This document shows positions 6,651 to 56,274 of a DNA stretch of 64,000 nt, in pieces (positions within the stretch are counted from its first letter, which is position 1; the number at the start of each line of letters is the position of its first letter). The position numbers and the translations under genes are program-made. The notes beneath the pieces were generated by a model. It was not told where the DNA came from. It saw only the letters and a list, made by a program, of their open reading frames with translations, and searched no databases. The stretch comes from Eledone cirrhosa (taxonomy: Eukaryota), in NCBI GenBank assembly GCA_964016885.1, contig OZ024765.1, forward strand, positions 1,922,001 to 1,986,000, given 5' to 3'.

Positions 6651-6715
6651 TATTTCATTATACATATTTCAAGGACACCAAGTTAAATTATGGTGTGCTT
6701 TCATCAGATAAAATA
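6651..6715 (-). ncRNA. Hammerhead ribozyme motif, family C (left arm of palindrome)
   Basis: Reverse complement of the copy at 6874-6938; core intact. Confidence 0.75.
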
Positions 6716-11215: not shown

Positions 11216-12909
11216 GCAAGGGGAGGGCAAGAGAGATGAGGGCAATGACTATTGGAACACATAGGTAAGCACTTGGAATTTGGTTAGTACCTCCCTATAT
11301 ATAACAAAGTAAGTGTGGTAAGGGACCAGCTGGACCATAACCCACCAGAGTACTCAATACTTAGGGTAGTAGAGTGGGTAATAGGAAAAGAGTCAGGACC
11401 CCGACGGCTGAGCTCCGGCCGTTTCGACATCTAGATCCGAACTCTGGCTGTCAAAACGGCCGGAGCTCAGCCGTCGGGGTCCTGACTTTTTTCCAATATA
11501 TCATCATCATCATCATCATTTTACGTCCGCTTTTTCCCTGCTTGCAAGGGTGGGACGGGAACTGATTCTGGCTTGATCTCTACAGCTGGATGCCCTTCCT
11601 AACACCAACCCCATTTACAGTGAGTGCTGGGTGCTTTTTTGCTGTGGCACCTCCACGACCACTTTGCAGTGGAATGATAGGGACTGGGGTCCCTATCACC
11701 TCATTTCTACAGCTGAGTAAACTGGAGCAATGTGAAATAAAGTGTCTTGCTCAAAGAAACAACACATCACCCGGTCTGAGAATTGAACTCACAACCTTTC
11801 GATTGCAAGCCCAATGCTCTAACCACTAAGCTTATATATATATTGATAATTAGCAGTATATTAGTGTATTAGTAGTGTATTTAGTTTGTTTATCAACTTC
11901 TCAACCAAACATTGCAGATATAATTCTAATTACTTTACAAGGTAATCATATCTCCGATAAAAAAAAAAAGGCCCAACAACATAAAAAAAAAAAGGAACGA
12001 ACCCGTAACAGTCACAGACAATCTGATGCCAGACAGAACAATGAAGTACCTGTTATTGGAACATATAAATTATCAATGCTTATTAACTTCAGTAATTGCA
12101 TTTAGCTTTTACGTCTATCTCATGCATTGGTAATATCATTCCATTTGAACTTTTTCCTTCATTTGTGTGTGTTGTACATTAATTTGTGTAAGTTTAAGTT
12201 TAGACAAATAGACTAATATATCTTATCTTAGTTTCGTTATCTGAAATCATATGAGAAGTTTTAATTAACTCTGTAATCTTTAAGGTTGTCTTGGCACCTT
12301 TCATTAATGAAATCCTCAATTTCATATCTCAAACACTTCTTCTTCTTCTTCTTCTGTTAAATCTGTGCATTGTATGGCTTGCTTTGAAATTGTCATTGTC
12401 GTTGTTATTATTATTATTATTAGTGGGTTAGCGGTGGAGGGTCGGACGCCATGCTTTGCAGCATAGAGTTACGGCCCTTGCCATTCTGAGTTCAAATCCC
12501 GCCAAGGTTAACTTTGCCTTTCATCCTTACGGGGGTCGATAAAATAAAGTACCAGTAATACACTGTGGGGTGATTGCTGGCCTTGTGCCAAAAGTAGAAA
12601 CAATTATTATTATTTTTATTATTTGTATTATTATTAATGTTATTATCACCATCATCATCATCATCATCGTCATCACAATTATTTTCATCATCATCATCAT
12701 CATCATCACCATCAATATCACCATCATCATCATCACCATCATCACCATCATTACTATCACAGATATCATCATCAGCATCATTATTATTATTATTATTATG
12801 ATGGTGGTGATGATCCCCATAGCAACCAATAAACACATAACTGCAGCACAGATACACCCCCTTCAACAACACAACCACCACGAACACAACCAACAAGAAC
12901 ACCACCACC

Positions 12910-54855: not shown

Positions 54856-55100
54856 AGAGTGGTTTTAGTGTTCTCAAGGTAACATATGGGTGACTGTAGT
54901 TAGACAGGTGAGGTTTATTGCCCCCTGCTCACCTGGCAGGTAAGAAACTGGAATATATATACATCGCTATTTCAGAGCACCGATCCTAATACCTAATGTT
55001 TGCTGGACCAGCAATCGCTCTGTATAATCAGCTCCTGATTATTACTGGAATTCTATAAGAATCCAACTTCTCTAATTTTCAGCGGAAGCAGGGGGAGCAT

Positions 55101-55142
55101 GGCTCTGATGATCGCCAACCAGCGTGAAACAGACTGTCAGCT
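55101..55142 (+). ncRNA. Hammerhead ribozyme motif, family F
   Basis: GGCU-CUGAUGA-U CGC CAACCA GCG U-GAAACAG A CUGUC-AGCU, GUC triplet. Confidence 0.72.
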
Positions 55143-55300
55143 TCTCTCCCATCTTTCGCCGAAAAGAAGTAAGTGACATAGTCACTACTTTAAAACTGAT
55201 AGCGTATAGTCTTCTAAATGTTTTTAATTAAACATCCGGTATATTGCCAAATATACTATACATACATTCATGTATACATCGCTATTTTAGAGCACCAATC

Positions 55301-55354
<54 letters not shown>

Positions 55355-55356
<2 letters not shown>

Positions 55357-55498
55357 GAAGTGGTTACACAACAGTTAGTTCACCATACCGAGAACAATTG
55401 TTTCACTTTAGCGGATCCTCAGCTCGTGATCTGAGGATCCGCTAAGGTGAAACATTTGTTCTCGGTATGGTGAACTAACTGTTGTGTAACCACTTCTA
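55355..55498. repeat. ~144-bp palindrome containing family G hammerheads
   Basis: tagaagtggttacacaac...ggatcctcag pairs with ctgaggatcc...gttgtgtaaccacttcta. Confidence 0.9.
55389..55426 (-). ncRNA. Hammerhead ribozyme motif, family G
   Basis: CGAG-CUGAGGA-UCCGCUAAAGU-GAAACAAUUGUU-CUCG, with palindromic stem III ACAAUUGU. The inverted partner at 55431-55464 lacks the 5' strand of stem I. Confidence 0.65.
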
Positions 55499-56274
55499 CC
55501 TAACTCGTCCCTTGGACTGAGTGCTCTACCACTACGGATATTACCTTCCAGTGTTCTACCACTATATATATATATATATATATAACGAAGGAGGTGTAGT
55601 AAGGAACCAGATGGACTATAAGGCAGCAGTCCAGAAATAGCCATCGAAACGGCTTGAGCTCTGCCGTCGGGGTCAAACATTTTCTCTCTCTCTCTCTATA
55701 TATATATATAGAAAGAGGTATCATGTGATTATAGCTAGACTGGTGAGGTTTATTTGCCCCCTGCCCCTCTCCCCACTGTCACACACATACACCACCATCA
55801 CTACCACCACAAAGGCAACAACACAACAACAACAACTACAACAACCAACACCACCAACACCACCACCACAACTACAACAACCACCAACACCACCACCACA
55901 ACTACAACAACCACCAACACCACCACCACCATCATCATCATCACATCCTATTTCTATCAATATAGTTTGATATTTTTAAGGGAATCAATAGTAATTTAGT
56001 AATTGGACCTCGAAATGACTGGGTGGTAGTGGTAGTGGTAGTGGTGGTGGTGGCGGTGGCGGTGGTGGTGATGGTGGTGGTGGTGGTGGTGGTGGTAGTG
56101 GTGGTGGTGGTGGTGGTGGTAGTGGTGGTGGTGTTGGTGGAGGTGGTGGTGGTAGTGGTGGTGGTAGTGGTAGTGGTGGTGGTAGTAATAGTAGTGGTGG
56201 TGGTGTTAGTGGTGGTGTTAGTGGTGGTGGTGGTAGTGGTGGTGGTAGTGGTGGTGGTAGTAGTAGTGGTGGTG

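Follow-up and report, generated by a model that had tools for sequence, protein, structure and literature searches.

How does a small non-coding element carrying a hammerhead ribozyme come to lie within TA microsatellite sequence as slightly more than one copy of its own repeating unit? The question is raised by a locus at about positions 54955-55306 of a microsatellite-rich 64-kb window of Eledone cirrhosa contig OZ024765.1 (the window is the whole stretch of DNA analysed, and its coordinates are used throughout), where the end of a 315-base unit repeats its beginning. An initial annotation, whose 'Family F' is a label of that annotation only, had proposed a circularly permuted unit, either retrozyme-like and copied from a small circular RNA or a tandem pseudo-LTR. 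The locus is best explained, and quite probably so, as one monomer of a non-LTR retrozyme together with a tail, placed in (TA)n by the machinery of Penelope-like elements.

Hammerhead, fold and repeat of the window copy

Table 1. Coordinates of the element and its parts in the window (strand '.' where orientation does not apply).
Feature	Position	Strand	Basis and remarks
(TA)4 at 5' junction	54954-54961	.	sequence; depth rises above flank in bin 54940-54954
5' repeat copy (37 bases, unit start)	54955-54991	+	sequence comparison
One 315-base period	54958-55272	+	39% GC, non-coding, strongly self-folding
Long stem I arm carrying the hammerhead	55077-55164	+	predicted fold; 55077-55097 paired with 55144-55164
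Type I hammerhead, predicted cut after C55138	55101-55142	+	pattern match; stem I closed by 55101/55142
Hammerhead core	CUGAUGA 55105-55111; GAAA 55126-55129	+	sequence
Stem II, 6-nt loop	55112-55115/55122-55125	+	U.U at base in window copy
Palindromic 3-bp stem III, GUC ending at C55138	55129-55137	+	sequence
7-bp hairpin, A/C-rich loop, 3' foot at 55276	55257-55276	+	predicted fold; putative first start of reverse transcription
3' repeat copy	55270-55306	+	sequence comparison; includes extension 55277-55306
Extension read as Penelope-type tail	55277-55306	+	27-30 bases, border blurred by TA; its end is the putative second start of reverse transcription
(TA)26 microsatellite, one G inside	55305-55356	.	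sequence; putative insertion target

The two copies of the direct repeat (Table 1) are identical at 34 of 37 positions and lie 315 bases apart, start to start (blastn E = 1.6e-9 against the window), which bears out the repeat that had been annotated at ~54960 and ~55275 with that period; blastn found no second copy of the 315-base unit within the window. The same annotation placed (TA)n at both ends: TA is indeed present on both sides, but the runs are lopsided, 4 units on the left against 26 on the right, and the left run shares its last 4-7 bases with the junction sequence of the element itself (microhomology). The internal differences between the repeat copies are minority letters of the window copy, from which 120 of 131 reads differ at 54982 and 700 of 717 at 55288 (where at most 17 of 717 X8 reads, a set described below, carry the window letter); the repeats were therefore probably identical at insertion, and the window copy is not young. 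The majority of X8 reads also differ from it at 16 of the 40 variant positions listed.

The GUC hammerhead had been annotated at the right coordinates. A paired-stem pattern match recovers it as a CUGAnGA / GAAA / UH core with three helices, of which helix I is open, the arrangement of type I, and 2 of 5000 dinucleotide-shuffled versions of the unit contain the pattern. The Rfam model Hammerhead_HH9 (RF02275) shares its core, 4-bp helix II, 6-nt loop and an internal loop in helix I, and matches over its whole length but weakly (14.4 bits, E 0.35, where the gathering score is 52), a likeness of geometry rather than membership; at gathering level, the Rfam search returned no hammerhead anywhere in the window. 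In the window copy a U.U closes the lower end of helix II, and proximal helix I is down to 4 pairs (6 bp in the canonical motif), and the self-duplex of helix III is predicted at -6.9 kcal/mol. Letters that complete the helices occur in X8 reads among the variants listed: 290 of 545 at 55112 (giving A-U), 683 of 751 at 55151 and 166 of 183 at 55099. Another of the variants listed replaces C55138 by T (256 of 790 reads), a change at the cut site that hammerheads tolerate. Within the helix III loop (55130-55134), small insertions behind 55133 were seen in 26 X8 reads and one X4 contig, and in the rows listed they leave the flanking letters of the stem intact.

The lowest-energy fold of the window copy traps the catalytic core, at -35.4 kcal/mol against -28.2 for the hammerhead fold (7.2 lower), energies that leave out tertiary contacts. 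Folded as a circle, the unit is predicted to reach -83.9 kcal/mol with 63% of its bases paired (z -5.6, with 0 of 100 shuffles as low), whereas the linear fold has a z of -5.2 and the minus strand one of -3.0; strong self-pairing of this kind, as modelled, is what is expected of a non-LTR retrozyme RNA. Covariation in the reads supports the predicted fold only weakly: of 26 changes at paired positions, 13 keep the pair with the window partner and 13 break it, three pairs having been added by hand after the variants had been seen. One X4 contig (depth 3.12) carries double changes at 55114/55123, 55084/55157 and 55087/55154, of which the first two are CpG transitions (2 of 3).

Copies and 3' ends in public sequence sets

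Seven public runs contain part of the 315-base unit. Four sequence sets were aligned to 54880-55312 at a likeness threshold of 80%: X1 (6879 contigs, organism label A), which is possibly the source of the assembly and hence not independent, X1-X3 being one sample; X8 (5123 raw RAD reads), which has the same species label as X1 but comes from a different sample and study, and is a reduced-representation library cut at AATT sites; X4 (28 contigs, organism label B); and X6 (3 contigs, organism label C). The counts that follow are drawn from the best 40 of 240 variants, 15 of 38 joints and 12 of 20 between-joint rows, and the evidence on ends and pieces from the best 21 of 516 loose-end rows and the best 20 of 7019 pieces; summed depth is not a copy number.

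Depth in the flank (54880-54939) is 4.7 in X1 and 0 in X8, X4 and X6; it is far higher inside the unit, so that the element starts at ~54953-54958 and belongs to an abundant family, found in public reads under three organism labels. The junction of repeat with body is common: X1 depth at 54994 is 30,311 against the flank's 4.7, one variant at 54998 is carried by 101 X1 contigs, and single contigs cross the junction in X4 (record 9, 54962-55031) and X6 (54958-55069), while loose ends before 55001 look like a diverged version of the same junction. Among the joints listed, a joint from 55272 back by 315 bases to 54958 occurs in one X1 contig, three X8 reads (with two starts) and one X6 contig, and is absent from X4; X6 record 17 reads 55241-55272 and then 54958-55069, passing through the repeat into the body. 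Single X1 contigs have joints 55302->55002 and 55307->55024, and overlapping pieces among those listed (X6 record 17; X1 records 2, 4 and 5) cover the whole 315-base loop without an inserted open reading frame. Since other copies carry the junction internally, the repeat belongs to the element and is not a target-site duplication. The initial proposal, a head-to-tail, retrozyme-like unit present as slightly over one monomer, is supported by these joints and by X6 record 17, and it withstood its own stated refutation, a repeat confined to this locus.

From such joints we infer tandem source arrays for the 315-base family, with the proviso that run-through reads could also derive from monomers with different ends. 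Few joints show run-through directly (3 X8 reads among the joints listed), and X8 undercounts it, since in most copies an AATT cut site follows the repeat within a few bases. No piece among those listed carries two hammerheads, and the window locus holds one. Joints to the opposite strand within the unit occur in other copies (for example 55109/55237 in 20 X8 reads with three starts, among the joints listed), as would be expected of Penelope-type inverted 5' pieces; some of them may be library chimeras. A pattern scan for relatives gave no match in metagenome contigs and none in viral contigs, and two matches in prokaryote genomes were rejected, extending over at most 21 bases where 4.3 matches were expected by chance.

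The initial annotation also expected circular permutation, that is, variable end points, and here the copies disagree with it: their 3' ends fall into two clusters, one at 55276 and one near 55306. Among the loose ends listed, exit into (TA)n at 55276 accounts for 357 X8 reads and 44 X1 contigs, and X8 coverage falls from 1261 reads at 55272 to 717 at 55288. The window copy stops ~30 bases beyond 55276. A comparable end is seen in X1 record 8, which reaches 55310 into TA with 18 differences and thus represents another locus, and in X4 record 16, which stops at 55306; roughly at least 124 X8 reads extend through 55306 into TA, a rough bound from bin depths, so the frequency of this longer end is an estimate only. 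Insertion in (TA)n or AT-rich sequence is seen both in the flanks of the window copy and behind 55276 in the 357 reads. There is no step in depth at the predicted cut site (673 then 801 in X8; 61,744 then 72,028 in X1), and cut linear monomers therefore do not look like the main template. Further X8 end clusters at 54995, 55049-55052 and 55226-55229 were rejected as biology and attributed to AATT library cuts: two coincide with an AATT that the window itself carries, and at the third the majority letter at 54998 creates one.

Kinship, competing explanations and a candidate insertion route

Non-LTR retrozymes are described as non-coding units of 150-450 bp with less than 50% GC (Cervera and de la Peña 2020, PMC7229834; Li et al. 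2026, bioRxiv 10.64898/2026.07.22.740005), and the unit studied here lies within these bounds, with one type I hammerhead and many copies. It shares with animal non-LTR retrozymes the 315-bp length, 39% GC, lack of an open reading frame (its longest stop-free stretches are 45 aa on the plus and 51 aa on the minus strand), abundance, strong predicted self-pairing and a head-to-tail junction, as well as a single canonical type I hammerhead with a weak palindromic helix III; the U.U at the base of helix II recurs in HHR_Amex2 of the axolotl. By size, GC, canonical ribozyme geometry, predicted folding and abundance the element is, as judged from sequence, a non-LTR retrozyme. What sets it apart from these relatives is that the window copy lies dispersed in (TA)n as a 1.1-mer, and that there is a second preferred end at a distance of ~30 bases. 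Plant LTR retrozymes, which have type III hammerheads in LTRs of ~350 bp, a PBS, a PPT and a 4-bp TSD, were rejected as a class for it, given a single type I motif and a 37-base repeat.

The ends, by comparison, resemble those of Penelope-like elements, for which a frequent 30-40-bp extension at one end and a preference for (TA)n have been reported (PMC8557442), as has an optional tail of 31 bp (PMC3846280). With the endonuclease-bearing members of this group the element shares a hammerhead upstream of the 3' end, an optional extension of ~30 bases (27-30 here, at the low edge of the reported range), insertion into AT-rich or (TA)n sequence, the lack of a clear target-site duplication and a cut site that is intact in the genomic copy. 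It differs in being a 315-base unit without a reverse transcriptase (RT) or GIY-YIG reading frame, in having a canonical rather than a minimal hammerhead, and in having a tail that is followed by the 315-base unit again and not by an open reading frame. The purified Poseidon protein of the anole has two internal start sites for reverse transcription, which lie downstream of the hammerhead and close to an AC-rich stem-loop; the Poseidon tail is the stretch between these two starts, the dominant substrate is uncut RNA, and the optional tail is described as shared among Penelope elements and unique to them (PMC11167929). In the account given there, Poseidon starts at +111-118, ~85-92 bases past a cut at +26, while the two 3' ends considered here lie 138 and 168 bases past the predicted cut. 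An autonomous Penelope-like element was rejected: the unit has no long frame, and none of 58 window frames (53 complexity-filtered and 5 hand-picked, of 114 complex frames of at least 60 aa) matched an RT or GIY-YIG family in Pfam, nor was there a match to any retroelement family among them, the weak matches lacking a passing stretch. The window frames thus offer no autonomous partner.

What, then, accounts for the overlap of the unit's ends? The main reading of the initial annotation, in which a 315-nt circle is reverse-transcribed in rolling fashion from arbitrary starts, with the overlap as a chance overshoot and the permutation random, draws on a unit that closes on itself in other copies, on the strong circular fold (z -5.6), and on RNA circles proven for other animal retrozymes (PMC7229834). 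We nevertheless hold it to be improbable, since 3' ends pile up at 55276 and recur near 55306, and since the only other strong X8 end clusters among the loose ends listed are the library cuts; the 30-base overlap is, in our analysis, better accounted for by a Penelope-type tail than by copying that overran a circle arbitrarily. A second possibility, that the element is a rare, not self-amplifying by-product of a long autonomous Penelope-like element, internally deleted to a tail, a pseudo-LTR and a tail, is unlikely, although it is accorded a small share of our belief. The tail-and-TA anatomy would suit it, X1 record 7 runs on for 664 unaligned bases beyond 55306, and shrimp Penelope elements have been reported with hammerheads whose helix III is small and palindromic (PMC4209133). 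Against it stand the frequency of the repeat-to-body junction in X1, which is also present in X4 and X6, the stops that interrupt all three frames from hammerhead to tail, and a 4-bp helix II, as in canonical hammerheads and unlike the 7-8 bp of minimal motifs (PMC4209133). X1 record 7 itself is a 973-base contig that matches 55159-55306 at 81%, and its unaligned extension could be either genomic flank or a longer parent element.

A longer tandem array that was cut down here by unequal recombination, or that collapsed in the assembly, would agree with a report that retrozymes are usually tandem, with monomers in all proportions (bioRxiv 10.64898/2026.07.22.740005), but it leaves the two preferred ends unexplained and still requires a mechanism of insertion; nothing in the locus suggests assembly collapse, and we give the idea very little credence. 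Least credible of all is a 37-base, locus-specific target-site duplication around a 280-base insert: such duplications in retrozymes are said to exceed 4 bp when present (PMC7229834), yet the depth of the repeat in X1 is 10^4-fold that of the flank, in other copies, and in other organisms, unit sequence adjoins the repeat on either side, and the repeat is predicted to pair with internal segments (54965-54971 with 55198-55204, and 54973-54978 with 55017-55022). X6 record 17 and the 55272->54958 joints refute it.

Returning to the preferred reading of a retrozyme monomer with a Penelope-type tail, we infer target-primed, Penelope-mediated insertion from two 3' ends ~30 bases apart downstream of the hammerhead, which match the geometry of Penelope tails. 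Source arrays would be transcribed, and a Penelope RT-endonuclease would nick (TA)n and start reverse transcription inside the RNA, either at 55276 (giving no tail) or at ~55306 (giving a tail). For the window copy, synthesis would have begun at the distal site and copied one period plus the tail, crossing the predicted hammerhead cut site intact; copying would then have ended one period on, at the TATA junction, with the 5' end joined to the target through TA microhomology.

An intact cut site in the cDNA means that the template would have been either a re-ligated circle or an uncut tandem transcript, two templates that leave identical DNA, so genomic DNA cannot tell them apart. The uncut transcript seems somewhat the better candidate and the circle somewhat the weaker one. 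In favour of the circle, canonical invertebrate hammerheads cleave efficiently and circles are abundant in coral, mussel and axolotl (PMC7229834); the Poseidon result, in turn, shows that no circle is required. The window copy, drifted since insertion and with a single ribozyme, would not itself release a circle. A more specific version, in which a 315-nt hammerhead circle is the Penelope RT template and is copied once round from two fixed starts beside the hairpin, is tentative and on balance doubtful. If true, 1.1-mers with and without a tail would be a direct genomic footprint of a link between the RNA circles of animal retrozymes and the Penelope machinery; some 'long target-site duplications' noted for these retrozymes would then really be Penelope tails.

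Much of this has precedents. Circles have already been suggested as templates for more-than-unit copies (PMC4209133), and a dependence of retrozymes on Penelope has been proposed (PMC7229834; PMC7761336), with Penelope-like elements put forward as carriers on the grounds of co-occurrence, a shared ribozyme type and pseudo-LTR homology (PMC7229834; bioRxiv 10.64898/2026.07.22.740005); in Xenopus, where monomers are common, it is the pseudo-LTR homology that supports this dependence (bioRxiv 10.64898/2026.07.22.740005). The word 'tail' has no occurrence in the main text of PMC7229834, PMC7761336 or bioRxiv 10.64898/2026.07.22.740005, whose supplementary insertion figures could show tails, and a literature search over titles and the beginnings of abstracts returned none linking the tail to retrozymes. 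A tail on a retrozyme would be a modest, testable addition, the element itself being of known type. The mechanism of retrozyme insertion is not shown in the literature covered, and the optional tail would be a mechanistic footprint of the Penelope partnership; it yields two exact predicted start sites for reverse transcription, a detail useful to specialists rather than a new kind of system.

Hammerhead-rich surroundings

Paired hammerhead patterns number 10 in the window and 0 in every one of 20 shuffled versions. Beyond the one described above they belong to several families and lie at 6707 (-), 6882 (+), 14730 (-), 16693 (-), 23225 (-), 27077 (-), 31736 (+), 40810 (-) and 44205 (-). Some are set in head-to-head palindromes, typical of Penelope 5' inversions, and a window of this composition fits a Penelope-rich genome.

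An element of another family adjoins at 55355-55562. It consists in part of a 144-base near-perfect palindrome (55355-55498), with two head-to-head minimal hammerhead-like motifs whose cores lie at 55431 (+) and 55422 (-), and it ends in (TA)n; a repeat with a spacing of 30 bases (55520-55541/55550-55571) may mark a tail of its own. A 36-base repeat occurs in three copies around the cluster (54687-54722, 54890-54925 and 55725-55760), each followed by C-rich sequence. Farther off, at 11776-11832 (-), lies a partial tRNA match (30.7 bits, model positions 9-63) that is perhaps the head of a SINE.
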